Below are positions 5,707 to 59,319 of a stretch of DNA of 64,000 bases, piece by piece (positions within the stretch are counted from its first letter, which is position 1; each line of letters begins with the position of its first letter). The stretch comes from Saccharofermentans sp. (GTDB lineage: Bacteria; Bacillota; Clostridia; Saccharofermentanales; Saccharofermentanaceae). The position numbers and the translations under genes are program-made. The DNA lies in the NCBI GenBank assembly GCA_045532275.1, contig JAZSFQ010000046.1, positions 56,138-120,137 on the forward strand. The letters are read 5' to 3'. Under the pieces are notes generated by a model that had not been told where the DNA came from, searched no databases, and saw only the letters and a list, made by a program, of their open reading frames with translations.

Positions 5707-6483
5707 TTAAGATAAGTCCTGCCTCAAGGACATTTCGCATGCAAAGACCTTGGTGTCGATATTCTTATAGCCGAAAACACTGATCTTACCGTCGTTTTTG
5801 GCTATAAAAAGTTCAACCTTCTCCCCTGCCTTGACTTCACTGTTGTAATTGATCACGAGATCTTCTATCAGCGAAACATCATAACCGTTTTTAAACAATG
5901 CGTCATAAGCCCAGGCAGTATAACGAGAATTGTTGACATGCCTGTTGCGGTCAAGTTCATTATAATCGGCATATTTGATGATAACGGGTTTTTCCGTCTC
6001 TCCTGCCACGTCGTTACGTGACGGAAATATGATCTTCGGACATTTTTCGCCAAATACATACCTCGGATCCTGTATTACAGGCGGAGGAAGCTCGGGGCGC
6101 TTATTTGCAATAACAGGCCTGTGAGTATTCCAATCAGCCAGGATCCATGTAGAAGTTGCCTGTCCGATAAGTCTGTTATCGCTGCTGTAGATCTCGAAAT
6201 CACGACCGTAATAGATCTTTTCGATAGTGTTCGCCCATGTCCTGATACGGAAAGTCTCATGCCATGACGGAAGTTCGGAAAAATGAAGTCTCATCTTCAG
6301 GATTATCCAGCAAATGTCATTCTCTTTAAGGAAATCCGTTCCGTACCCGATGGAATAAGAACTCCTCTCAGCAGCTTCCTGCAGATCACCGATCAAAGAA
6401 GAACAGTAAAGCCTGTCTCCTATACCGCACTCAGTAGCTTTGCAATACACTTCAACATCGGTATATTTACTGATCTCACTCAT
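5707..6483 (-). CDS. Acyl-ACP thioesterase
   Basis: Double hotdog-type sequence with catalytic motif ELDRNRHVNNSRY. Confidence 0.9.
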   Translation of the reverse strand: MSEISKYTDVEVYCKATECGIGDRLYCSSLIGDLQEAAERSSYSIGYGTDFLKENDICWIILKMRLHFSELPSWHETFRIRTWANTIEKIYYGRDFEIYSSDNRLIGQATSTWILADWNTHRPVIANKRPELPPPVIQDPRYVFGEKCPKIIFPSRNDVAGETEKPVIIKYADYNELDRNRHVNNSRYTAWAYDALFKNGYDVSLIEDLVINYNSEVKAGEKVELFIAKNDGKISVFGYKNIDTKVFACEMSLRQDLS

Positions 6484-7054
6484 TGTCTTCTTCCTTTGCT
6501 TTTACAGGGCGGGGCATGGCCATCGGAATGGTTCCTCTCGGATTATATCTTCTGAAAACAGGATACATCTCTTCTTTATATATAAATACGATCAGGACCT
6601 TTATTCCCTCAGTCGGAAGCAGCCAATACCAGTATTTCTCATCAATGTCGAATTCCTTATAATCTGTCATCTTGATAACGATATTGGCTTTTTCCTTATC
6701 AGATTTAAATCTGTCAGAACTAACAGGTCCGATATATTCGCAATCCTTCAGAGAGAAACTGATCAATTCGTCACGCTTATTCGTTCCGAGAATAACGGCA
6801 CAATCAACCAGATCATTAGACATTTCTATCTCATACTCTTTATGCTGGCGTTTAATAAGAACGACAGTTCCCGCAACGATTCCGAAAGCAAGGATACCTG
6901 AAATAAAATACAGGTTCTCACCTGTGTATATCGGGATCAGGAACGCGAAAAACACTGCGATTATTGCAGTGGTAACCAAAAAAGTATTAAACACAACCTC
7001 AGCTATTCCGTTCTTTCGCTTAACGCTTGTCTCAATAAAACTGTCCTGTAGCAT
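6476..7054 (-). CDS. Conserved hypothetical membrane protein (DUF6106-like)
   Basis: DSFIETSVKRK start, two TM helices, EYEIEM...LVDCAVI segment; overlaps the thioesterase start by 8 nt. Confidence 0.55.
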   Translation of the reverse strand: MLQDSFIETSVKRKNGIAEVVFNTFLVTTAIIAVFFAFLIPIYTGENLYFISGILAFGIVAGTVVLIKRQHKEYEIEMSNDLVDCAVILGTNKRDELISFSLKDCEYIGPVSSDRFKSDKEKANIVIKMTDYKEFDIDEKYWYWLLPTEGIKVLIVFIYKEEMYPVFRRYNPRGTIPMAMPRPVKAKEEDNE

Positions 7055-7225
7055 TTTTCACCTCAAACAGAGATAATTTTAGCATAAATATTCCAATATA
7101 CGTAAAATGGCTTAAGAGTATTAACGTTTATCTTTTTACAGTTTTTTCGAGATTATTCTTTTTTTCAACTGATAAAATGATTTATATTGGAAAACAAATA
7201 ATATACTGAAAGGACTGCCATTATC

Positions 7226-8372
7226 TTGAAAGAAGGAAATAGCGCCTCTCTTTTAACTCACGTGAAAACATCTGAACTTGAAAAATCTGATGATGCTTCA
7301 TTTAAGATTAGTTCTCTTGACGAAGACATTTCGATAGAGAAAATGGAACACATCAAAGGAATAGCATTAATTTTGCTTATGTGGCATCATCTTTTTGGAT
7401 GTGATTATATTTCTTCATGGATGACCCCTCTTAAGGGCTTAGATATCATGTTCGGATTGGGGTCAAGACTTTGTTTGGGAATCTTTCTTTTTTGTTCAGG
7501 TTACGGACTTTATAAGTCATATCTGAATAAGAAAACAGTAATAAGAAACTATATACTTAAAAGGCTTATCAAAATTCTCATCCCGTATTGGGTTGTAATG
7601 CTGGTTACCATAGCATATTTGATTTTTGCCGATTCCTTTAATCCTCATCATTTCTTTTCTAATCTTTTTGCATGGAACGATGAAGTTCTATATGTAAGCT
7701 TTGCATGGTATATAAAGCTTTATATACTTCTAATGTTGATAATGCCTTTGGTTAGATTTATTAATCTGAATCTTAAGAAACGTATATTCTATGATATAGT
7801 TGTTTTTGTGCTTTTGCCGTTTGTTCTGCAATATATATTCATTTCTATCGATTATAAAACAAGTTTTCCGGCAGTTGCAGTTTCTTTTCTCGATCCGGTT
7901 GATATGCTCATCTACTGGTTTCCGTTATTTGCTATAGGTATTATCTTTGCAAAATACAATATATATAAGAATCAGAAAGTTCTATACCAGGATGCCGCAT
8001 CAGCTTATTATTGCATTATCATTAGTTATTGCAATCTTAACTATATTCCTCAGATATGCATTTAATTACCCTAGTCTTACAGATTCAATCTACTCACCGG
8101 TTTTTACGGTCTGTTGCCTGCTAATAATGGATAATATCAGATTTAAAAGTAAATATATAATCCCCTATTTAGGAAAAAAATCAGTATATTTCTGGTTATT
8201 AAGCGGAATCTTTTTTCTGAACACATCTGAACTTCTCCCTGCAATAACATGGCCTAAGATTCCATTAGTTATGCTTATCTGGACTTTAGCACTTCTTACA
8301 CCGTTCGTGTATTTGTGTGATTTCGTTTCTGGTAAACTAATCGGTCTGTTATTAAACAAGCACAATACTTAA
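7226..8372 (+). pseudogene. Acyltransferase-3 family membrane O-acyltransferase, split by a frameshift near 7959-7967
   Basis: ORF 7226..8065 carries the N-terminal IKGIALILLMWHHLF and FLFCSGYGL motifs. Overlapping ORF 7947..8372 carries the C-terminal TMs (YLGKKSVYFWL). The frames switch at an ATATATAT tract. Confidence 0.75.
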
Positions 8373-8386
8373 AGAAAAGTGTGTAT

Positions 8387-8415
8387 TAAAAGAGGCTGCC
8401 CAAACGGACAACCTC
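8387..8415 (-). terminator. Intrinsic terminator downstream of groEL
   Basis: Minus strand reads GAGGTTGTCC-GTTT-GGGCAGCCTC followed by TTTTAAT (10-bp stem with two G-U pairs). Confidence 0.7.
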
Positions 8416-8437
8416 CATAATTATTTCTGATAAATGA

Positions 8438-8510
8438 GCAATATGATTTTTCGCAATTTCCGCACAAGCGCGAAGCGCGCGGAGGACTTTTTGCGAAAAA
8501 TCTATATTGC
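8438..8510. repeat. REP-like palindromic intergenic element
   Basis: Arms GCAATATGATTTTTCGCAA (8438-8456) and TTGCGAAAAATCTATATTGC (8491-8510) are complementary apart from a 1-nt bulge. The core contains the GCGC-GAA-GCGC hairpin (8468-8478). Confidence 0.7.
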
Positions 8511-8517
8511 GAATGCC

Positions 8518-10158
<1,641 letters not shown>

Positions 10159-36529: not shown

Positions 36530-39500
36530 TTAAGCTTTCTTCTTTTCTTCTTCGATCTCCTGCTCCCTGACTGCACGCGCTGTGCTGATCATGAGCTTGA
36601 TCCTGTTAAGCTGGTTAGCTTCGGATGCGCCCGGATCATAGTCGATTGGAACAATATTCGAAGTAGGATACTGTCTTCTCAATTCCTTGATCATACCCTT
36701 GCCGGTTACGTGGTTAGGAAGACATGCGAAAGGCTGCGCGCAGATGATATTCGGTACGCCGTCCTGGATAAGCTCGATCATCTCCGCAGTAAGGAACCAT
36801 CCTTCACCGCAGGAATTGCCGCAGCTCAATACCGTAGAAGACTTCTCTGCAAGTTCCTGGATCCTCTCGGTCAGCATGAACTTGCCGTTCGTCTTAGCGA
36901 ATTCCCTATTAATTGGCTTTCTGAGCGATTCAAGGAATCTGATAGCAGTCTTCATGATATAACCGGTCTTCTTGCTCTTACCGAGGTTCTGAGCCTGCCA
37001 GAGCGGGTTATAAGCGCAGTATAGGAAGAAATCCAATACTCCGGGCAATACAGCTTCGCAGCCTTCTGCTTCAATGACATCGATCGCATTATTATTTGCG
37101 TCAGGCTGGAACTTAACAAGGATCTCGCCGACAAGACCGACTCTGGGTTTTCTGGGAATATCAGCCAAAGGCAGGCTATCGAACTTTGCAACTGCGAACT
37201 TAACGAATTCCTTATATTTTGTGATGACCGGAGGATTTTCAAGATCAACGCCGATCGAAGCAAGGCAGTCTCTGATTGCCTTTTTCTCTTCGAGGGATCT
37301 TGAGAAATAGCTGTTGGGCATCATGACATCATATCTGTCAGTAAGATGATCATTAACTTCCTTAAGATTAAACAGTTTTCTGCCGATCCTGTTGATGTAT
37401 GAATAAAGCGCATTTGCAGAACCCGGAACCTTCTCATAAGGCCTTACTCTCAAGAGAAGCGTTGATACCATGTCACCTGCGCACAAAGCCTTAATGGCAT
37501 CGAGAAGGAATGAGACAGTATATTCGAACCCTTCATTCTTCTCGAATCTCTGTGCAGAAATAGTAATAACAGGGATCTGCGGATAACCTGCCTCTTTAAG
37601 GGCTTTTCGCAGGAAAGCAACGTAGTTTGTCGCACGGCATCCGCCGCCTGTCTGTGTTATTGCAAGCGTTGTGTTATCCGGATCAATATCCCCCTTTAAT
37701 ATCGCATTGATCATCTGTCCGACAACGATAAGCGTCGGGAAACATGCATCGTTATTTACATACTTGAGGCCGCATTCTATATCTTCTCTCGTGGCCTGCT
37801 TTAAGAGCTTAAGCTTATATCCGTGCTTATGGAAAACAGACTCCACAAACTCGAACTGTATAGGAGCCATCTGAGGAGCGAGGATCGTGTGATTCTTCTT
37901 GTGTTCTTTTGTAAACTCAACTCTTTTTACCGTGTAAGGAGCATCATCTGAATTGGGATTAACCGCCGGTGAACCTTTCTCAGCCTCGAGTTCCAGACGC
38001 TCATTCATTGCAACGACAAGAGATCTCATTCTGATCCTTGCGGCACCGAGGTTACTTACTTCATCGATCTTAAGAAGCGTATAGAGCTTACCTGAAGATT
38101 CAAGGATCTCCTGAACCTGGTCAGAAGTGACTGCATCAAGGCCGCAGCCGAAACTCGTAAGCTGAACGAGTTCGAGATCAGGTCTGGTGATAACGAATGC
38201 AGCAGCTTCATAAAGTCTCGTGTGGTACATCCACTGATCGATGACTCTGATAGGACGCTTTAATACACCGGGCTTAGCGACAGCATCTTCAGTAAGGACA
38301 GCAAGTCCGAGAGAGTTGATCATTTGCGGAATACCATGGTTGATCTCAGGATCGCAATGATAAGGTCTGCCTGCAAGAACTATACCCTTGAGGCCCTTTT
38401 CCTCCATCTCTTTTAAGATCTCTCTGCCCTTAGCCTTGATGTCCTCCTTGTACTTGAAATATTCTTCCGCGCCAGCCTGTACGGCCTGTTTTGCTTCTTC
38501 AGCAGAGACACCGAGATAATCGAAGCATTCCGTAAGATGCAGAGCGACATTATCAAGATTATCCAAAGGCATGAAAGGATTTAAGTATCTAATGTTCTTT
38601 TCGAGCAGGTTCTCAACGTTATTTCGGATAACTTCCGGATAAGAGCATACTATCGGGCAGTTATAATGGTTATTTGAATTATCATTCTCGATATTCTCGT
38701 AAGGAACATCAGGATAGAAGATCGTAGTAATGCCGCGGTCAATGAGGTTTTCAATGTGACCGTGGGCAAGCTTTGCCGGATAACATACGGACTCTGAGGG
38801 TATAGTTTCCATTCCGCCTTCATAGATCTTATGTGAAGATCTAGCGGATACGAGTACCCTGAATCCGAGCTTTGTAAGTACCGTAAACCAGAAAGGATAA
38901 TTCTCATACTGATTTAAGACTCTCGGAATACCAATCTCTCCTCTTGGAGCGTCTTCAAGCTTCAAAGGCTTATAGTAGCTGAAAGTCCTCGAATATTTAT
39001 AATCGAAAAGATTCGGAAGCTTCTTTTTATCATTGACTGGTTCCCTGTCCAATGCCAGATCCTCGCCTCTCTCGCAGCGGTTGCCTGATACGAATTTCGT
39101 ACCGTTCGAGAAAGTCGCGATCGTAAGCCTGCAGTGATTAGTGCAGCCCTGACACTGGGTATTCTCCGTATCCATCGAAAATGAATCAAGCTCATCCTTG
39201 GCAAGAACAGCTGATTTGGAACCTTCTTTGCATCTTCTCTGTGCGATAAGAGCCGCACCGAATGCACCCATAAGTCCAGCGACATTAGGTCTGATAACAT
39301 TTCTTCCGGATACGAGCTCAAAGCATCTTAAGATAGCGTCATTAAGGAACGTACCGCCCTGAACGACGATATTCTTTCCGAGCTGTTCGGTGTCGCGGAT
39401 CTTGATTACTTTATAGAGCGCATTTCTGACTACGGAATATGAAAGACCTGCGGAGATATCACCGACTGAAGCGCCTTCCTTCTGAGCCTGCTTAACCTTT

Positions 39501-40966
39501 GAATTCATGAATACCGTGCAGCGCGTACCGAGGTCTACAGGCTTTGTCGAACTTAATGCAGCTTCAGCAAATTCAGGCGTTGTAAGCCCGAGTGTCTGTG
39601 CGAAAGTCTGGATGAAAGATCCGCAGCCTGAAGAACATGCCTCATTGAGCATGATGGAATCGATAACTCCGTTCCTGATCTTCATGCACTTCATGTCCTG
39701 TCCGCCGATATCGATGATGAAATCAACATCGGGACAGAAGAACTTTGCTGACTGGAAGTGAGCCATTGTCTCGATCTCGCCGATATCGATATTAAGTGCG
39801 GCTTTGATAATGTTTTCACCGTATCCGGTAACACATGAATGCGCAAGATAGCAGTCTTCCGGCATCTTTGAATAGATGTCCTTCATAATGGTGACTGCGC
39901 TCATAACCGGATTACCCTTATTGCTTGCGTAATATGTATATACGAGGTCACCCTGCTTGTTGATTACAACAGCTTTTGTAGTCGTAGAACCTGCATCAAC
40001 GCCGAGATACAGAGCACCGTGCTGGTCCTTTATATCCAGAACGGGAATATAGTCTTTCTTATGACGCTCGTCAAAAGCAGCCTTATCTTCCTTATCCTTG
40101 AAGATCGGATCGATCCTGATGATATCCGGAACGAAGCCTTCCCTGTTCTTAAGCTTTACGAGAAGATCTGAAAGATTGACGGGATTCTTTCCGTCAGCAG
40201 ACAGAGCGGCACCCAAGGCAACATAGATCTGGGCTTCTTCAGGCATCCAGAACGAATCGACCTTATCCTTCAATGTCCGCTCGAAAGCATTTCTGAGCTC
40301 GGAATTAAAGAACAGCGGACCGCCTAAGAATGTAACGTTGCCTTTTATCGGTCTGCCGCAAGCAAGACCTGATATGGTCTGGTTAACTACAGACTGATAG
40401 ATTGAAGCAGCAAGGTCTTCCTTGGCAGCGCCCTCGTTGATGAGCGGCTGCAGATCCGACTTTGCAAAAACGCCGCATCGGCTTGCGATAGTATAAAGTG
40501 ATCTGTAATCCTTTGCGAAATTATTAAGTCCGTCAGCGTCTGTCTGAAGGAGCGATGCCATCTGGTCGATGAAAGAACCCGTACCGCCGGCGCAGGTTCC
40601 GTTCATACGCTGCTCGAGTACAGGATGCATATAAGTTATCTTGGCATCCTCGCCGCCGAGTTCGATGATAACATCAGTCTCAGGGTGATATGTCTTGATA
40701 GCCTGTGTCTCGGCCATAACTTCCTGCGTGAACTTGAATCCGAGCCAGTTGGCAACGGAAAGTCCGCCTGAACCGGTAATAACGACATCAACGTTGATCC
40801 CGGGGAACTTGTTGTTAAGATCTTCAAAAAGGTCATTCAGAAGTCCCGATACATCTGAATGATGTCTCTGATAATCACTGTGTATTATCTTCTCGCCGTC
40901 GAGAAGAACCACTTTAATGGTTGTAGATCCGATATCAAGACCGAGCTTGTATACCTTGTCCATCAC
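36530..40966 (-). CDS. 2-hydroxyacyl-CoA dehydratase activator-type multidomain protein (two BadF/BadG ATPase domains plus DUF2229/dehydratase-like domains)
   Basis: GLDIGSTT and GVDAGSTT; CAGGTGSF and CSSGCGSF; SESVCYPAK, SFGCG, NDACFP, PFACLPNH. Confidence 0.88.
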   Translation of the reverse strand: MMDKVYKLGLDIGSTTIKVVLLDGEKIIHSDYQRHHSDVSGLLNDLFEDLNNKFPGINVDVVITGSGGLSVANWLGFKFTQEVMAETQAIKTYHPETDVIIELGGEDAKITYMHPVLEQRMNGTCAGGTGSFIDQMASLLQTDADGLNNFAKDYRSLYTIASRCGVFAKSDLQPLINEGAAKEDLAASIYQSVVNQTISGLACGRPIKGNVTFLGGPLFFNSELRNAFERTLKDKVDSFWMPEEAQIYVALGAALSADGKNPVNLSDLLVKLKNREGFVPDIIRIDPIFKDKEDKAAFDERHKKDYIPVLDIKDQHGALYLGVDAGSTTTKAVVINKQGDLVYTYYASNKGNPVMSAVTIMKDIYSKMPEDCYLAHSCVTGYGENIIKAALNIDIGEIETMAHFQSAKFFCPDVDFIIDIGGQDMKCMKIRNGVIDSIMLNEACSSGCGSFIQTFAQTLGLTTPEFAEAALSSTKPVDLGTRCTVFMNSKVKQAQKEGASVGDISAGLSYSVVRNALYKVIKIRDTEQLGKNIVVQGGTFLNDAILRCFELVSGRNVIRPNVAGLMGAFGAALIAQRRCKEGSKSAVLAKDELDSFSMDTENTQCQGCTNHCRLTIATFSNGTKFVSGNRCERGEDLALDREPVNDKKKLPNLFDYKYSRTFSYYKPLKLEDAPRGEIGIPRVLNQYENYPFWFTVLTKLGFRVLVSARSSHKIYEGGMETIPSESVCYPAKLAHGHIENLIDRGITTIFYPDVPYENIENDNSNNHYNCPIVCSYPEVIRNNVENLLEKNIRYLNPFMPLDNLDNVALHLTECFDYLGVSAEEAKQAVQAGAEEYFKYKEDIKAKGREILKEMEEKGLKGIVLAGRPYHCDPEINHGIPQMINSLGLAVLTEDAVAKPGVLKRPIRVIDQWMYHTRLYEAAAFVITRPDLELVQLTSFGCGLDAVTSDQVQEILESSGKLYTLLKIDEVSNLGAARIRMRSLVVAMNERLELEAEKGSPAVNPNSDDAPYTVKRVEFTKEHKKNHTILAPQMAPIQFEFVESVFHKHGYKLKLLKQATREDIECGLKYVNNDACFPTLIVVGQMINAILKGDIDPDNTTLAITQTGGGCRATNYVAFLRKALKEAGYPQIPVITISAQRFEKNEGFEYTVSFLLDAIKALCAGDMVSTLLLRVRPYEKVPGSANALYSYINRIGRKLFNLKEVNDHLTDRYDVMMPNSYFSRSLEEKKAIRDCLASIGVDLENPPVITKYKEFVKFAVAKFDSLPLADIPRKPRVGLVGEILVKFQPDANNNAIDVIEAEGCEAVLPGVLDFFLYCAYNPLWQAQNLGKSKKTGYIMKTAIRFLESLRKPINREFAKTNGKFMLTERIQELAEKSSTVLSCGNSCGEGWFLTAEMIELIQDGVPNIICAQPFACLPNHVTGKGMIKELRRQYPTSNIVPIDYDPGASEANQLNRIKLMISTARAVREQEIEEEKKKA

Positions 40967-44571: not shown

Positions 44572-45401
44572 ATATTTCCACCACAAGGAAGACTTTGTTT
44601 AACGTTAATTAAAACTCTTTTCAATTCATAATCATACACTTTTGAAGCAAAATCCGATAATTCCCATAAACCGTCAGTTTTTTGTAATAGTACCTGGGTA
44701 ATATCATTTTTAGTAATCAGGCCATAATGAAGTCTACCTGTTTTTTCACACAGATACTCAGCAATATCGCCTGTAGAACAAATAGAACTATCTCCTTGTA
44801 TATACTCATCGAGATCAGGTTCAAAAGGAGAACACGATGTGCCCACATACTTTTGAACAAACATATAAACCTGATTATTGTAATCGTTTACCTTCAGTTC
44901 TTTAACATAAACATTTCTGAGAAGACCGCCATACAAAGATTCCTGATGGTCATATTCATAACCCGTAAGTAATACATTCCGGATACTGTAAGAGTTATTA
45001 GGAGAAACAGATGTGCAGAAATGGGTTATTGCCCGGATATAAGCCAGTTTCTCTAATATATTTATGAATGCCGCCTGCAGACCGTTCCCGCGGAACCCTT
45101 CCCTGACTATGCACAATTTAAGATCCATAGCCTTATCAACACTGAACTTTTGAAGGTTAACACGCAGATCGGTCTCCGGAGGCACCGGGTCAACTGCAAT
45201 TCCGATAGCAATAAGCTTTTTATCGATAAACACGCCTAAAGCAATATTTCTTTCAGAAACCGCCTGGAGTAATATTTCCGGACTGTTTCTCCTCAGTACA
45301 GAACTGTCTTTCAGTCCGAGGAGCGTATTCTCCTGTAACTCAAGAATTGAATCAAGATCAGCCGCGTTTAGAGATCTAATATACATTTTTTCAAATTTCA
45401 T
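44559..45401 (-). CDS. GNAT family N-acetyltransferase with an additional ~110-aa C-terminal domain
   Basis: Acetyl-CoA motif VREGFRGNGLQ, TSVSPNNSYS, YGGLLR; ATGA overlap with the upstream fusion gene. Confidence 0.8.
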   Translation of the reverse strand: MKFEKMYIRSLNAADLDSILELQENTLLGLKDSSVLRRNSPEILLQAVSERNIALGVFIDKKLIAIGIAVDPVPPETDLRVNLQKFSVDKAMDLKLCIVREGFRGNGLQAAFINILEKLAYIRAITHFCTSVSPNNSYSIRNVLLTGYEYDHQESLYGGLLRNVYVKELKVNDYNNQVYMFVQKYVGTSCSPFEPDLDEYIQGDSSICSTGDIAEYLCEKTGRLHYGLITKNDITQVLLQKTDGLWELSDFASKVYDYELKRVLINVKQSLPCGGNICQT

Positions 45402-47770
45402 GTATTATCCTCCACGGGTTTCATTTGATTTAACATATAATCAATAATACGCTTATGCCTGCTGCTACACCACTTTTCATCATCTGCCTTTTCGGCAATA
45501 GGACACAGGATCTGGAAATCCAGGACTTCACCCGGAACCCTTCCGCTGCGCATTGGCATCATGAAATTTTCCATCCACTTTTCATCATCAGCACCGGTAA
45601 ACTCTTCAGGCTTTAAAAATGTCCATTGACGTTTAGTTGCTTCGATAAATGCTTTAACAGACAATGGTGAGAGCAGCTCAAATTCCTTCCCGTCAACATC
45701 TTCAAAAATAGCCGGCAAAGGCGCTTCTACAACTCTTTCCTCACCTCTGACGATCTTTAAACCCAATGCCTCAAAAGAATAATCTTCTTTGGTAAAATGC
45801 AGTTTTATAAGGATTCCGGAATCCGTATAATGCTGAGAACGCTGATAATCTGTATCAAATATAAAATTACCGAGTGAATAAAAGATGGTTTTACTGCCGA
45901 CTGTTTCATAATTCATCGGAACATGAGGATGATGACATACAACTATGTCCGCTCCCATATCCAGATATTTCAAATATCTGTCGCGTGTATACGGAGACGG
46001 AAGCGGTGTAAATTCCTCACCGCCGTGTACAACAATAATGCACCAGCGGCATTCAGACTTTATTCTGTTTATTGAGTCTCTGATCGAATCGAGATCATCC
46101 CAGCGGAAGCATCCCGGAACTCCGTCACCGGCAGCACGGCATGCTCTCTGATAACCTACACATATCATGCCGATACCGCCCGCTTCGTTGAGTATCACCG
46201 GTCTGTGGGCATCAGCAATATCCATGCCTACACCAAGTGTTTGAATACCGTAAAAACCGGCAATGTCCAGAGTACTCTTAAGGCCGGCTGGACCTGCATC
46301 CATGATGTGGTTATTACACAGCGACCAGATATCTGCTCCTATATCAACAAGAAAAGGGGCTACTTCACTGCTCATGGAATGGATCAACTGAGCAACGCCT
46401 TCATTCTCAGACGTTAATGTGACATCCATTAACGGTCCTTCAACATTGACAACAACATGGTTGGAAGCACTCAGAAATCCTCTGACCTGATCACTCAGAA
46501 GATCTTTATTCCTCCATTGTTCCGACATGTATTTGTCAAAGCCGATATCACCGGTAAAAACGATCGAGGTATCACTTTCCGCTTCGGATAACACATACTT
46601 CTTAAATGCATCACCGCGTTCTTCAAAATCCTTAAAATATCCGTAAGATGCAGCGGCAGGAGAAAGAACGCAGGCACAGCCTTTAGGCGTATGTATTCTT
46701 GCAGTTCTCACCGCGGCAAACAGATCGGCAACAAGAACGCAGCAGGAAAGACCGCTTAATTCCTTATAGATCCTTTCACCCGAAGAATAGGCGAAAATAT
46801 AAAGCATATCCTGATGTGAACGGATATGATCTATTAAAAGGCTGTAATCTATATTACGGTCCATTCCGCCGATTATAATGCTCTTTACGTTTTCAATACT
46901 CTGTATTGCCTGTATAGCCGCTTCGGGAATGGTTGAGATGGAATCATCATAATAATTGATACCATTCACAATCCCGACAAACTCCATGCGGTGAGGCAGC
47001 CCTTTAAATCTTAAAAATGCGGAGCGGATCTCTTCGTCCTGCATATTAAACAGCTCAGAACAAATGGTATAAACAACATTGGCGTTGTACTGATTATGTA
47101 TACCTAAAAGCTTAATATCATATTTTTTCTGTGTAACCTCAGGTAATAACCGGATCTTTGCCTCAGTAGAAACATACGGAACAGAAGATCCGTGAAAATA
47201 GTAATCATTACCATTCTGATGTCTGGTTATATTTGCTTTTGCCCTGAAATAATTCTCCCTGGTACCATAGTAATCCAAATGATCCTCAAACAGATTCAGG
47301 ATAACTGCAATATGAGGAGAATAACGGCATTTATACAGTTGATGGCAGGATAATTCAAAGACGATTATTGTCTGATCATCAATATCATCATAATAATCCA
47401 GACACGGATAGCCGATATTGCCTACAAGGAGCACATTTTTACCATAATGAGAAACAAGCGTGGAATACAACAGAGAAGACGTGGTACTTTTTCCCTTGGT
47501 TCCGGTAATACCTACAGTCTGACCTCTGAACTGGGAAAGGAACAATTCGGTCTGCGATGTCAGTTTCTCATTATCGACCGATGTATGTATTCCGGGACTC
47601 TTAATTACCAGATCATAGTTATCAAATTCAATATCTTCAACGTATCCTTCAAATATCTCATAAACTGAAGACGGGCAATGACTTTTAAGGAATCTCTCGG
47701 TCGATTTTCCTTCGCGGCCATAGCCCCATATTAAGATCTTTTTATTGTTTAATTCAGATATAATGCTCAA
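45398..47770 (-). CDS. MurD(MurD2-like) amino-acid ligase fused to a CapA/PGA_cap metallophosphoesterase domain
   Basis: About aa 1-390: IWGYGREG, GITGTKGKSTT, FELSCHQL, EDHLDY, PHRME, DDSISTIPE, GGMDR, SPAAASY...RG. From about aa 400: FTGD, NVEG, CNNHIMD, HGGEE, CHHPHV, YSLGNFIFD. One uninterrupted ORF. Confidence 0.88.
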   Translation of the reverse strand: MSIISELNNKKILIWGYGREGKSTERFLKSHCPSSVYEIFEGYVEDIEFDNYDLVIKSPGIHTSVDNEKLTSQTELFLSQFRGQTVGITGTKGKSTTSSLLYSTLVSHYGKNVLLVGNIGYPCLDYYDDIDDQTIIVFELSCHQLYKCRYSPHIAVILNLFEDHLDYYGTRENYFRAKANITRHQNGNDYYFHGSSVPYVSTEAKIRLLPEVTQKKYDIKLLGIHNQYNANVVYTICSELFNMQDEEIRSAFLRFKGLPHRMEFVGIVNGINYYDDSISTIPEAAIQAIQSIENVKSIIIGGMDRNIDYSLLIDHIRSHQDMLYIFAYSSGERIYKELSGLSCCVLVADLFAAVRTARIHTPKGCACVLSPAAASYGYFKDFEERGDAFKKYVLSEAESDTSIVFTGDIGFDKYMSEQWRNKDLLSDQVRGFLSASNHVVVNVEGPLMDVTLTSENEGVAQLIHSMSSEVAPFLVDIGADIWSLCNNHIMDAGPAGLKSTLDIAGFYGIQTLGVGMDIADAHRPVILNEAGGIGMICVGYQRACRAAGDGVPGCFRWDDLDSIRDSINRIKSECRWCIIVVHGGEEFTPLPSPYTRDRYLKYLDMGADIVVCHHPHVPMNYETVGSKTIFYSLGNFIFDTDYQRSQHYTDSGILIKLHFTKEDYSFEALGLKIVRGEERVVEAPLPAIFEDVDGKEFELLSPLSVKAFIEATKRQWTFLKPEEFTGADDEKWMENFMMPMRSGRVPGEVLDFQILCPIAEKADDEKWCSSRHKRIIDYMLNQMKPVEDNT

Positions 47771-47782
47771 ATAAACACCGCC

Positions 47783-48532
47783 TTAATGTTTCTTGGCTTT
47801 TTTTGCTGATTTACCCTTTATTATCCTGTCGTATCTTTCAGGATTTACTAAACCGCGCAATTGCCTGGCCTCATAAACATTATCCCAAATGATTGTTTTG
47901 CCATCATTATTCGCATCAACAAATTTCCGATAAGCTGCATCCAACTCTTCATCTGTGGTTTTATGAATATGAACTCGGTATTCCAGCCATTCTTTTTCCA
48001 ATTTGAAGATATTAATGAAGTTTTCCGGCTGAGGACCCAATTTGCTGTTTTGAAATAATTCACTGTGAACTGCCATGAAAAAGCGATAAGCAAAAAGGTC
48101 ATCAATAACCGCAAATGTAAGAACGCCACGGTTTTTAAGGATATATATCGTCTCAAAAAAAGTAAGATAATTAGAAATAGAACCCTTTTCAATAACAGGC
48201 GGTTCATTCTGGTTATCAGTATTATTCCTGTTATCATATATTGATTGAAGAATATTATATGTGCGCATGTAATCAGAATTTCCGACAAAATTCTGATTCA
48301 GTTCCATAATGAATGTAGCTCTCGCAATCTCTTTAGATTCATAAAGCTGCTGGATAGTAAACAGTATCGTAATTCCGAGTCCGACAACTTCAGCAAATTG
48401 AAACCAGAAAGAAGCAACTTCTTCAGGAATAGAAATAAAATATGAAATATTACGTCTGATCAGAATGATCAAAGCAATGATCAGGATAAAAAAAAGCGCT
48501 AAAAGCAATTTGCGATACTTAGTATGTTTCAT
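47783..48532 (-). CDS. Hypothetical membrane protein (DUF4760-like)
   Basis: Two N-terminal TMs, then YLTFFETIYILKNRGVL...DDLFAYRF, resembling the DUF4760 core. Confidence 0.55.
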   Translation of the reverse strand: MKHTKYRKLLLALFFILIIALIILIRRNISYFISIPEEVASFWFQFAEVVGLGITILFTIQQLYESKEIARATFIMELNQNFVGNSDYMRTYNILQSIYDNRNNTDNQNEPPVIEKGSISNYLTFFETIYILKNRGVLTFAVIDDLFAYRFFMAVHSELFQNSKLGPQPENFINIFKLEKEWLEYRVHIHKTTDEELDAAYRKFVDANNDGKTIIWDNVYEARQLRGLVNPERYDRIIKGKSAKKAKKH

Positions 48533-56413: not shown

Positions 56414-59227
56414 TTATTTCTTTACAAACCTGAATACATTACCCTTATCGTCATCAGACATGCCGCGGATATAATTCAGGTAGAGATCAGTAACATAATC
56501 GCCACGGCCAGAATCAGAGAGGCTCTGCAATGCGGTAACAGCCTCAGCTCGCCTGCCGAGCGAGAAGAGCCTTATGGCTTCCCTGAGTTCTCTGGTATTC
56601 GAAGAACGCTGTGTCTTTACATTTTCGGGCAGACAGTCAAGCACCTCATAAAGAGCCTCAACTTCATTTACGCCTGCGACCTGTACGATTCCAAGATACC
56701 GCAGAGTAAGAGAATCCGGATCATTCACACGGTCAAGAGTGCTCTTGGAGATTATCATCGCTGTCTTATACTGCTTGGTAAGAGATTCCAGTCTGGAACT
56801 CATGTTTACGGTCTCGGAGATGACGGTTCCGGATAGTCTCTCCTCCTCGCCTACGATACCGACCATAGCCATTCCGGTGTGAACGCCTATACCGATATTG
56901 ATATCGCTGACATTCAGTTCCCTGGCAGTCTCAGGATCGAGAACAATGGATTTATAAAGTTCTATACCGCATCTGACGGCATCATCAGCATGCTCGAAAA
57001 GGCCCATTACCGCATCGCCGATATACTTATCAACGAATCCGTTATTATTACGTACGATAGGGCCCATCTTGCCGTAAATGGTATTGGCAAAAGCGAAATT
57101 CTCTTTTGCGGTCATCATCTCGGAATTGATAGAGAAACCGCGGATATCACAGAACAGGACCGTCAGTTCGCAGCTCTTCGCATCTCCTAAAGCCAGATCC
57201 GTAAAGTTCTCCTTGCCAAGTAGCTCTCTGAACTTCTCGGGAACGAACTTATAATAGAACTTCTCAGTCTCATCCTTCTCATCGAAGAGCTTCTCGAGGT
57301 TCTGACCCATCTCGTCGACCTCAGAGCAGATCATTCCCAATTCATCCTTTGACTTGTAATTGACTCTGGCAGACAGATCACCGTTCGAGATCTTCTTTAC
57401 TGTAGCAGAAGCTTTTTTGATGACCCTGATGGTATTAAGCGAAGTCAGGACGATAAGTAACGTAAGAGTAAAAATGATAAGAAAACCGAATATTATAGCT
57501 TCACCGAGCAGATCCTGACGCTGTATATAGAAAGATCTGCTGTCAGAAGTAACCATAAGATAATATCTTCCCGAATCGTCTTTATCTGAGATCTTACGGA
57601 GAACAGAGATACGGCTGTCCATATTATCATCGACGAAATCTCTTACATGGCTCTTAAGATAACTGCCGCCTTCAGAATCCTCAAGCTTCGCGAAACCTTC
57701 AAACTCGCGGACATAGAACGGCATATATAAAGCATCATCTCCGGCAATCGTGATAATATCATCATCTTCATTTCTGTAAATTAACGAGAATACAAAGCCC
57801 TCGCTCCAGTCATTGCCGTGGACATTGCCTAATGTATCAAACTTTTCCTGAAGTCTCCTGTATGCGGCTCCGGTCTGTTCATCAGCAACAGTAAGATCAG
57901 AGAAATCATAACCGTTAAATTCAGAGTTGGCGAGATCACAGACAATGGTAAGCTCTCTGTCAACGTTCAGTTCGATATTTACGTCGGATTTAATATATAC
58001 AACATATCCGACACCGGCTGTAAGAACTATGATTATCGGTAGTATGATAATAAGCTGCTTATATAACAAAGTCTTTTTTCTTATTATCAGATTAATGCCT
58101 AAGGCAACAGCCGAAAGAGTTACCGCTATCTCAAGGAAACGCTCCAGATACATAAGGAATGTAGGGTCGAACCTTAATACCAGTTCCTGATCTTTAAGTC
58201 CCGCACCGTCATAAGTCAGCACAGCATTATCAAGGCAGATAACAAGGTTTTCTTTACCGCCGGTTATGTATGAATCAAGTGAAACGATATAAGAATAATC
58301 GCTGTCTATATCAAATGCTCTTTGAAGCTCTTTATTCTCAAGGATATAAACGGTACTCCGGTTATTGCTGTCCGCAACATAAATCTTCCCGTCCGCTATT
58401 GCAGCGAGATCGAAATACGGATTCTCATCATTTCCGTCCTCACTTACCGTGAAATGATAGATACTCTCGCCTAAAGGCTCATTAAATCCAGTTAAATATA
58501 CGTTTCCGTCGCTTCTTAAGAAAAGGAATCCACCGTCAACCGGAATTACAGATGCTGTAAATGTACCCTCCTGATCCGTAGTATAAAGATCGCTCTCAGT
58601 AAGGGCCTGGCTGCCTGTATCAAGAGAATAGAGCCTGACTCCGTCCTGATCTGAAACTGCAAAAGTTACTGCACCGTCATAATAATGCAGACGGCTTAAC
58701 TTTGACTGTCTCAATCTTTCAGCTACATCATAATCAAATCCGCAGACTTCTCCGATATAACCGTATTTATCCGTGATCCTTACGATCGTCTCATTCGTGA
58801 TTATCGAGCTCTCTTCGTTATATTCGCGCCTGATCGCATAGATGACATTATCATCAGTGATCACGGCATTATCGGGCGTAAAATAATCATCACCGAAAGC
58901 ATCAATAATGACCTCGTTCATATTGGTATATGTCTTATCACGGGTATCAAGATTAATGACCGCTGCGATTCCCTCGACATTATCCGTACTGGTGACCAGC
59001 ATATCTCCGTTATCGTTTATTGTAAAACCGTCCGCATCCACAAGTTCAAAATACTTAAGGAATGAATCACTGTCTTCGTCACGGAGGCCCTGGACATAAG
59101 GCCATGTACCCTGAAAGATGAGCGGGATCGATACCAGAGAAACTGTTACGCACAAAGAGATCAGGTACCACCTGGCTTTTCCGAATATCTTAAAGAAAAT
59201 GTCTTTTACCTTCTTAAAAAACTTCAT
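56414..59227 (-). CDS. Membrane-bound class III adenylate/guanylate cyclase with HAMP and large sensor domains
   Basis: LFCDIRGFS, DKYIGDAVM, IGVHTG, VNMSSRLE; HAMP (GDLSARV...DELG); four predicted TMs. Confidence 0.9.
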   Translation of the reverse strand: MKFFKKVKDIFFKIFGKARWYLISLCVTVSLVSIPLIFQGTWPYVQGLRDEDSDSFLKYFELVDADGFTINDNGDMLVTSTDNVEGIAAVINLDTRDKTYTNMNEVIIDAFGDDYFTPDNAVITDDNVIYAIRREYNEESSIITNETIVRITDKYGYIGEVCGFDYDVAERLRQSKLSRLHYYDGAVTFAVSDQDGVRLYSLDTGSQALTESDLYTTDQEGTFTASVIPVDGGFLFLRSDGNVYLTGFNEPLGESIYHFTVSEDGNDENPYFDLAAIADGKIYVADSNNRSTVYILENKELQRAFDIDSDYSYIVSLDSYITGGKENLVICLDNAVLTYDGAGLKDQELVLRFDPTFLMYLERFLEIAVTLSAVALGINLIIRKKTLLYKQLIIILPIIIVLTAGVGYVVYIKSDVNIELNVDRELTIVCDLANSEFNGYDFSDLTVADEQTGAAYRRLQEKFDTLGNVHGNDWSEGFVFSLIYRNEDDDIITIAGDDALYMPFYVREFEGFAKLEDSEGGSYLKSHVRDFVDDNMDSRISVLRKISDKDDSGRYYLMVTSDSRSFYIQRQDLLGEAIIFGFLIIFTLTLLIVLTSLNTIRVIKKASATVKKISNGDLSARVNYKSKDELGMICSEVDEMGQNLEKLFDEKDETEKFYYKFVPEKFRELLGKENFTDLALGDAKSCELTVLFCDIRGFSINSEMMTAKENFAFANTIYGKMGPIVRNNNGFVDKYIGDAVMGLFEHADDAVRCGIELYKSIVLDPETARELNVSDINIGIGVHTGMAMVGIVGEEERLSGTVISETVNMSSRLESLTKQYKTAMIISKSTLDRVNDPDSLTLRYLGIVQVAGVNEVEALYEVLDCLPENVKTQRSSNTRELREAIRLFSLGRRAEAVTALQSLSDSGRGDYVTDLYLNYIRGMSDDDKGNVFRFVKK

Positions 59228-59319
59228 ACACAATCACCCGTACCAAAAGGAATCATTTAAATCTCGCGAACTTATGATACCATTAAATCCGGATAATTCA
59301 TTTCGTAAAGAGGACATTT

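Follow-up and report, generated by a model that had tools for sequence, protein, structure and literature searches.

A Mur ligase fused to an MslH-like PGA_cap module in gut Clostridia: a candidate enzyme for adding L-glutamate and epimerizing it afterwards

A 790-aa open reading frame (ORF) on the minus strand of a 64-kb stretch of Saccharofermentans sp. DNA (contig JAZSFQ010000046.1, positions 56,138 to 120,137; hereafter the window) joins an N-terminal Mur ligase to a C-terminal PGA_cap domain. Comparison with known enzymes leads us to think that, on balance, this ORF probably encodes a bifunctional enzyme of a route to the peptidoglycan precursor in which L-glutamate is added first and epimerized afterwards. 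This reading draws on (i) the membership of the ligase half in a clade that includes ligases linked to the epimerase MurL, (ii) the similarity of the C-terminal half to the peptide epimerase MslH, and (iii) the mutual exclusion of MurL and the C-terminal module among the analyzed loci.

The fused ORF is genuine and its junction is not chimeric. Logan contigs from three runs belonging to three different studies of bovine or sheep gut (X1, 45838-47186; X3, 46250-47007; X8, 46544-46772) cross the junction at positions 46570-46600 without indels, and the fusion sequence of the window was found in at least 20 bovine or sheep gut metagenome runs. Full-length fused homologs with 51-100% identity, drawn from assemblies of ENA, NCBI, JGI, and Logan, form at least 70 clusters. 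When GTDB species genomes were scanned, the ligase-module pair was identified in 29 metagenome-assembled genomes (MAGs) of herbivore-gut Lachnospiraceae/Clostridia, at 52-80% identity. MAGs with the fusion or the split pair include CACYMP01 / RUG12081, JAILKT01, JAFWDK01, and GCA_017614395.1. Of the 29, 23 have the fusion, and the other six have adjacent same-strand genes (L005, L008, L022, L024, L028, and L029), which in L022 and L024 are in frame and separated essentially by one stop codon. An assembly chimera was ruled out by the independent contigs over the junction together with the homologs in 29 species. The start residue of the ORF is also the start residue of its aligned homologs. The Pfam domains found in the ORF are Mur_ligase_M (residues 88-190), Mur_ligase_C (260-364), and PGA_cap (403-639, E 2e-44). 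Neither a transmembrane segment nor a signal peptide was detected in the fused protein, where the maximal Kyte-Doolittle value over 19 residues, 1.59, falls in the globular C-domain of the ligase. A preliminary description of the ORF, made from the window sequence alone, had read it as a cytoplasmic fusion and had proposed a check of the junction against reads; the fusion is supported as real, cytoplasmic, and conserved. The motifs listed there are likewise all present: WGYGREG, DSISTIP (residues 276-282), GGMDR (301-305), GD (407-408), NVE (442-444), NNH (486-488), H582, and HHPH (613-616).

The ligase half and its MurL-linked relatives

By sequence and predicted fold, the N-terminal half is a catalytically intact, MurD-like Mur ligase. 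It scores 259.8 bits against the NCBIfam murD equivalog TIGR01087 (cutoff 211.95), and its best match in PDB is the S. agalactiae MurD 3LK7 (E 1e-43). The AF2 model has pLDDT 90.8 and pTM 0.76, and Foldseek aligned the ligase half to the closed E. coli and P. aeruginosa MurD structures with TM-scores of 0.74-0.76. Its N-terminal domain has about 20 residues fewer than that of E. coli MurD. We mapped catalytic residues through motifs and E. coli numbering, and take them to be the counterparts of E. coli MurD N138, E157, H183, K198, N268, N271, R302, D317, and T321; all of them, as well as the P-loop, show no variation among 53 fused sequences.

The ligase departs from canonical MurD at the glutamate site, as had been described earlier. 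Ile278 and Arg305, both invariant in the 53 fused homologs, replace E. coli K319 and K348, and the aromatic Tyr376 occupies the position of L416. The canonical MurDs aligned alongside carry DSK(A/S)T(N/S) and either Lys or Thr at the matching position of the GG motif. The relevance of these positions comes from published mutagenesis that places control of chirality at R358, E197, and K319. The Xanthomonas oryzae MurD2 has E197/R358/P433/F435 where E. coli MurD has D182/K348/A414/L416, its E197D/R358K variant is switched to D-Glu, and the K319T substitution lets E. coli MurD take L-Glu (Ogasawara-Dairi review, PMC8788868).

The decisive comparison is provided by relatives of the ligase half that are either unfused or fused to MurL (P0109, P0117, P0078, and P0083; 46-55% identity). 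The P0109 gene has a MurL gene directly upstream with an 8-nt overlap (L083:6587-8008 with 8001-9335). This MurL, like the others identified here from precomputed Pfam hits and NCBIfam NF041275, is a genuine homolog: it contains MurL_N and MurL_epimerase_C, matches NF041275 with E 8e-68, and has the PP-loop GGGKDS. P0117 also has MurL directly upstream (L086:4298-5902 with 6001-7449), and P0078 and P0083 each join a full MurL to the ligase in one protein. The ligase signature of the window protein recurs in every relative whose MurL gene is fused to it, adjacent, or close by. Since all MurL-linked relatives carry the same glutamate-site signature, the assignment of the clade to the MurD2 type is supported, and the preliminary description, which had taken these motifs as typical of MurD2, agrees with the loci found. 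We infer that the ligase is specific for L-Glu.

More distant ligases were collected by a metagenome scan with P0109, which gave 32 mostly distant ligases, among them canonical controls and three with MurL adjacent or nearby (L090-L092). The latter are 31-40% identical to P0109 and have a non-Lys residue at the K319 position together with GGxDR; L092 matches the published E/R/P/F pattern of MurD2 exactly. The comparison with MurD2 was made using the published residue identities and these MurL-adjacent metagenomic ligases, in place of the X. oryzae sequence itself. In a rough neighbor-joining tree, which carries no support values and is to be weighed accordingly, the MurL-linked and module-linked ligases interleave in one radiation, well apart from canonical MurD.

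Some candidate markers were rejected. DSISTIP and GGMDR were found in all 116 ligase-containing sequences of the top 120 matches, whether fused or unfused, and are not specific for the fusion. The choice of Asp or Glu at the position of E. coli D182 is unusable as a diagnostic of MurD2, both residues being present in MurL-linked and module-linked ligases. The TIGR01087 family cannot separate MurD from MurD2, because the MurL-coupled P0109 passes it equally well (273.9 bits). For the same reason, if the proposed reading holds, the automatic annotation "D-glutamate ligase" is probably wrong for the whole clade.

MurL and the C-terminal module are mutually exclusive in all loci seen. No MurL was found in the window, in loci L001-L082, or within 10 kb of the 29 module-linked loci, and no module was found in the MurL-linked loci. 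The published distribution of MurD2/MurL covers some Proteobacteria and rare Actinobacteria, and Firmicutes are not among the taxa named (PMC8788868). The MurL-coupled MurD2-type ligases in clostridial gut MAGs suggest that the MurD2/MurL route is wider than this distribution.

The C-terminal module

By sequence and fold, the C-terminal half is a complete MslH-like module, composed of a core and a C-domain; its reading as a phosphoesterase followed by a tail is not supported. Its PF09587 match scores 152.5 bits (gathering score 27), and its only sequence relative in PDB is MslH, found with E 1e-13 from a single sequence and 5e-16 from a profile. MslH structures (8GQ9, 8GQB, and 8ITH) are also the best non-Mur match in Foldseek, with E of about 3e-15 and about 403 aligned columns of 437. 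Because the fold alignment covers this much of MslH, the segment previously described as a tail of ~90 aa is equivalent to the MslH C-domain; it comprises about 150 aa (residues 640-790) and is not an appendage. At 17-25% identity, and with 46.6 bits against the NF038314 cutoff of 700, the module is a distant homolog of MslH and not its orthologue.

The metal ligands of MslH are E44, N87, H259, and H261, and its catalytic dyads are H88/D91 and H295/D11 (PMC10406935). In the module, E44, N87, H88, D91, H259, and H295 correspond by alignment to E444, N487, H488, D491, H582, and H616, respectively, and D11 corresponds by motif and fold to D408. All these residues are invariant in 148 modules, a strongly constrained set in which 101 positions are at least 98% conserved. 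The first motif of the module, read directly from the sequence, is T-G-D408-I-G-F and contains no D-x-H. Glu444 is followed by Gly445, where YmdB has the second-metal ligand Asn40; the same loss of the second-metal Asn leaves MslH with one metal (PMC10406935). Cys544, Cys554, Cys574, and Cys577 (residues 544-577, window positions 46040-46141) are invariant, and may form a structural metal site or disulfides. The four-Cys loop is much shorter than the matching region of MslH; between the two aligned blocks, the module has a loop about 75 residues shorter. The near-invariant motif that spans R741-D751 is a candidate substrate-binding loop, and its R741-x-G-R744-V-x-G-E748 part is among the positions conserved to at least 98%. 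The MslH-like fold and the retained dyads point to a putative epimerase activity, presumably on the product of the fused ligase. They agree with the suggestion by the discoverers of MslH that CapA is the epimerase bringing D-Glu into poly-gamma-glutamate (PMC8179263).

In an exhaustive phmmer search, the module fell into a narrow, tightly knit family that lies within a larger group of PGA_cap proteins of cytoplasmic size (154 clusters at E ≤ 1e-30). Outside the fusion, it was found as stand-alone homologs of 387 aa. The unfused MurD2-type ligase of L081 is accompanied by a 57%-identical module at a distance of about 5 kb, and in L043, from Acutalibacteraceae, a stand-alone module and a MurD2-type ligase are convergent and lie within 5 kb of each other. 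Module relatives with 33-35% identity are joined to ATP-grasp ligases of the "sugar-transfer associated" kind (PF14397; P0181, P0182, and P0198), which represent a second, independent architecture of ligase and PGA_cap. The presence of PGA_cap beside three kinds of amide ligases (PgsB, MurD2, and ATP-grasp) fits a pattern of post-ligation tailoring. At 22 Acutalibacteraceae loci, a 161-aa ORF (L033:11190-11675, minus strand; cluster c1) lies no more than two genes from the stand-alone module and is mostly encoded on the other strand. Read by eye, its sequence resembles a putative amidase; its recurrence may be synteny only.

A proposed pathway and its alternatives

In the proposed pathway, the MurD2-type ligase would add L-Glu to UDP-MurNAc-L-Ala with ATP. 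The free alpha-carboxylate of the terminal Glu would bind the single divalent metal of the module, as the terminal Trp does in MslH, and H488/D491 and H616/D408 would swap the alpha-proton from opposite faces. MurE, which is specific for the D-form, would pull the reversible epimerization toward D. Such an MslH-type step would be free of ATP, unlike that of MurL, which consumes ATP, forms AMP, and is unidirectional (PMC8788868), and the fusion would favor hand-over of the intermediate. The module would replace the unrelated, ATP-consuming MurL, the partner of the same ligase clade in other Clostridia; a non-orthologous displacement of MurL in an essential pathway is plausible. The preliminary description had noted both the dependence of MurD2 on an epimerase and the absence of murL, and had overlooked the fused PGA_cap domain as the obvious candidate for this role. 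It had also considered the architecture undescribed, and the literature searched contains no description of MurD2 with a CapA/MslH-type module replacing MurL in Clostridia.

Several observations weigh against this reading. In the ligase, Asp163 stands at the position of MurD2 E197 (43 of the 53 fused homologs have Asp and 10 have Glu), Ala374 rather than Pro stands at the position of P433, and the E197D substitution moved the specificity of X. oryzae MurD2 toward D-Glu (PMC8788868); Asp at the E197 position is also present in MurL-linked P0117 and L091. In the module, the MslH ligand His261 is replaced by Gly584, with the invariant E585 and E586 adjacent; the activity of the MslH H261A mutant is only diminished (PMC10406935). 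The occurrence of the module is not confined to Mur ligases. Its stand-alone homologs in Acutalibacteraceae (~60% identity) are mostly not located beside a Mur ligase, a copy with 58% identity is fused to an XRE-type helix-turn-helix (HTH) domain in an unrelated context (P0074-P0076; L087:8001-9473), and the 800-aa P0122 combines the module with a C-terminal GDSL/SGNH hydrolase domain. The HTH-fused copies are catalytically intact by their residues, and these proteins could be enzyme-regulator hybrids. Finally, MurD2-type ligases of this clade on short Logan contigs (P0080, P0084-P0090, P0092, P0093, P0095, and P0105) have varied add-ons, namely barstar, GNAT, HAD, YunG, and Cys_rich_CPCC, which may be either real fusions or gene-calling read-through. 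Because the clade carries so many different add-ons, the fusion by itself is weak evidence.

These add-ons, the stand-alone, HTH-fused, and SGNH-fused modules in unrelated contexts, and the non-conserved synteny around the fusion are all compatible with an incidental or regulatory fusion, in which the module would have an unrelated cytoplasmic role (tailoring of another glutamylated or peptidyl metabolite, or ligand sensing) with no pathway coupling. We consider this unlikely. The pairing is kept across the 29 species, whether fused or arranged as an operon, the module fills the partner role that MurL has in the sister ligases and excludes it in the loci seen, and the unfused modules of L043 and L081 are still no more than 5 kb from a MurD2-type ligase.

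It is quite unlikely that the module is a racemase of free glutamate, a MurI analogue feeding D-Glu to a fused ligase that uses D-Glu. The canonical-MurD residues Asp163 (the E. coli D182 position) and Ala374 agree with such a ligase, as do the GG-x-D-R of the streptococcal D-Glu ligase 3LK7 and the TIGR01087 match. That match, however, is not discriminating, given the score of MurL-coupled P0109, and Ile278 at K319 and the remaining signature are those of MurL-linked ligases. Moreover, MslH works on the C-terminal residue of a peptide, gripping the preceding amide, and not on a free amino acid (PMC10406935).

A ligase acting outside peptidoglycan synthesis, on another Glu-containing product (a secondary polymer, a cofactor, or a capsule-like gamma-glutamyl compound) with the CapA-like domain serving as in poly-gamma-glutamate (PGA) synthesis, seems highly improbable. 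The fusion gene does not lie in a dcw cluster, its ligase has a short N-terminal domain, and CapB/PgsB with CapA is an established example of a Mur-type ligase and a PGA_cap protein acting together; nevertheless, the best sequence and fold matches are all MurD, neither capC/pgsC nor export genes were found in the window, the protein has no membrane anchor, and the MurL-linked clade members at L083 and L086 likewise lie outside any dcw cluster. The link to PGA drawn previously survives as an analogy between two pairs of ligase and CapA, and fails as a statement about the product.

The function first suggested for the C-terminal half, that of a metallophosphoesterase acting on a phospho(di)ester in the nucleotide-linked product or in some other nucleotide and so making or editing a gamma-glutamyl or envelope precursor, is very unlikely: the module does belong to the calcineurin-like superfamily and retains several metal-ligand positions, and YmdB, which the MslH paper cites as a structural relative, is a real phosphodiesterase (PMC10406935), but the module lacks D-x-H and the second-metal Asn, its sequence matches in PDB are MslH and no phosphoesterase, and cleavage of the UDP-MurNAc-peptide would destroy the essential precursor made by its fusion partner.

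The preferred reading of ligation followed by epimerization can be extended, tentatively and with considerable doubt, to three broader proposals: a rumen Lachnospiraceae lineage may make peptidoglycan D-Glu without glutamate racemase or MurL, stand-alone modules may act in trans in Acutalibacteraceae, and the whole PGA_cap family, including CapA/PgsA and the ATP-grasp-fused proteins, may consist of post-ligation amino-acid epimerases. If true, the preferred reading would add a second, non-homologous epimerase to the racemase-independent route to D-Glu in peptidoglycan, and would carry that route beyond a few Proteobacteria and Actinobacteria into the abundant Clostridia of gut and rumen. It would also offer a soluble protein that acts on a small and well-defined substrate, in which the function of CapA/PgsA proteins could be probed; the PGA synthetase, a membrane-bound enzyme, has been refractory to biochemical work.

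Genomic setting and comparison with known systems

The window is a housekeeping chromosomal region that encodes GroEL, PolA, TopA, TrmFO, DprA, CoaE, QueA/Tgt, LeuA, UppP, and PrfB; uppP is located two genes from the fusion gene. A scan of the entire 64 kb revealed no murI, murL, capB/capC, class-IV aminotransferase, or second Mur ligase, as had been stated for murL, the racemase, capC, and other mur genes. The features of the fusion gene and its immediate neighbors are listed in Table 1.

Table 1. Features of the fusion gene and flanking ORFs, in window coordinates and in the direction of transcription
Feature	Position	Strand	Basis or remark
Upstream ORF, 249-aa membrane protein	47783..48532	minus	weak DUF4760 match; 12 nt from fusion start; not conserved with fusion
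Ribosome-binding-site-like AAGGCGGTG	47776..47784	minus	read directly; 5 nt before TTG, overlaps stop of upstream ORF
Whole fused ORF, 790 aa	45398..47770	minus	TTG start 47768-47770, stop 45398-45400; homolog alignment; contigs across ORF
MurD2-type Mur ligase, residues 1-395, three domains	46586..47770	minus	TIGR01087 259.8 bits; PDB MurD 3LK7 E 1e-43; Foldseek MurD TM 0.74-0.76
P-loop GTKGKST, residues 90-96	47483..47503	minus	invariant; homolog alignment
E-D-H, residues 162-164	47279..47287	minus	Asp163 at E. coli D182 / MurD2 E197 position
DSISTIP, residues 276-282	46925..46945	minus	Ile278 at E. coli K319; signature of MurL-linked ligases
GGMDR, residues 301-305	46856..46870	minus	Arg305 at E. 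coli K348 / MurD2 R358
Short linker between ligase and module, residues 396-401	46568..46585	minus	L022 and L024 have an in-frame stop codon here
PGA_cap / calcineurin-like core, residues 403-639	45854..46564	minus	Pfam PF09587 E 2e-44; MslH 8GQ9 E 1e-13 to 5e-16
G-D408, matching MslH Asp11 (partner of His295)	46547..46552	minus	assigned by motif and fold
N-V-E444, matching metal ligand Glu44 of MslH; next residue Gly, not Asn	46439..46447	minus	alignment
NNHIMD, residues 486-491, matching MslH Asn87/His88/Asp91 (metal ligand and first catalytic dyad)	46298..46315	minus	alignment
HGGEE, residues 582-586; His582 matching MslH His259, Gly584 at His261; Glu585/586 invariant	46013..46027	minus	alignment
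HHPH, residues 613-616; His616 matching MslH His295 (second catalytic dyad)	45923..45934	minus	alignment
Module C-domain, residues 640-790	45401..45853	minus	in stand-alone 387-aa homologs; MslH C-domain by fold; no Pfam family
Near-invariant R741-S-G-R744-V-P-G-E748-x-L-D751	45518..45550	minus	module alignment
Downstream ORF, 280 aa	44559..45401	minus	ATG overlaps TGA of fusion; translationally coupled; faint GNAT hint; not conserved with fusion

The neighbors of the fusion gene are conserved only in its closest relative, L001, and partly in L028. Since the other fused loci have other neighbors, the flanking 280-aa and 249-aa ORFs are outside any conserved system, and conserved synteny was dropped as a functional clue. 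The 280-aa ORF, whose start forms an ATGA overlap with the fusion, has no Pfam family; its residues 76-131 show a faint match (E 0.02) to arylalkylamine N-acetyltransferase, and its homologs were found only beside the fusion in L001 and L028. Elsewhere in the window, a giant 1478-aa ORF (36530-40966, minus strand) begins with a region that, read by eye, resembles BcrAD/BadFG-type activator ATPases, and a 939-aa protein (56414-59233, minus strand) contains a HAMP domain and an adenylate/guanylate cyclase catalytic domain.

Among the known systems, MurD2/MurL of X. oryzae (XOO_1320/XOO_1319; Feng et al. 2017; PMC8788868) is related to the fusion through the signature of MurL-linked ligases that the window ligase carries (Arg at K348, a non-Lys residue at K319, and an aromatic residue at L416), whereas Glu197 and Pro433 of X. 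oryzae MurD2 are Asp and Ala in the window protein. The window fusion has no MurL; its partner domain is an unrelated calcineurin-fold module located C-terminally to the ligase, unlike MurL, which is upstream or N-terminal. No similarity was detected between the module and MurL (NF041275), and their relation would be one of functional analogy only: MurL uses ATP and is unidirectional, whereas epimerization of the MslH type would need no ATP and could run in both directions. In the MurL-MurD2 fusions of Clostridia (P0078 and P0083), a ligase of the same clade and a presumed epimerase are likewise combined in one chain, but the epimerase is an N-terminal PP-loop MurL instead of a C-terminal PGA_cap module. 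Canonical MurD, which is supplied by MurI, has the same three-domain fold and conserved catalytic residues and passes the same TIGR01087 threshold; in the window ligase, however, K319 and K348 are replaced, and no murI is present within the 64 kb.

CapA/PgsA proteins share the PGA_cap family with the module and have as their partner a Mur-family amide ligase that adds glutamate, CapB/PgsB. They are anchored in the membrane and act with PgsC in a polymer-exporting complex, whereas the module is soluble and fused to MurD2, with no capB or capC nearby in the window. CapA has been proposed, though not shown, to epimerize Glu residues (PMC8179263). The lasso-peptide C-terminal Trp epimerase MslH (PDB 8GQ9, PMC10406935) has in common with the module the core and C-domain, both His/Asp dyads, and the ligands E44, N87, and H259; the substrate of MslH and the presumed substrate of the module both carry a free alpha-carboxylate on their terminal residue. 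The module differs from MslH by Gly at His261, four invariant Cys residues, a distinct conserved tail motif, and the ~75-residue shorter loop, and its presumed substrate is a nucleotide-sugar dipeptide rather than a ribosomal peptide on a recognition protein for RiPPs (peptides made by the ribosome and modified after translation). By analogy, the logic of the pathway appears to be that of MurD2/MurL, its chemistry would be that of MslH, and the combination of the two would be new.

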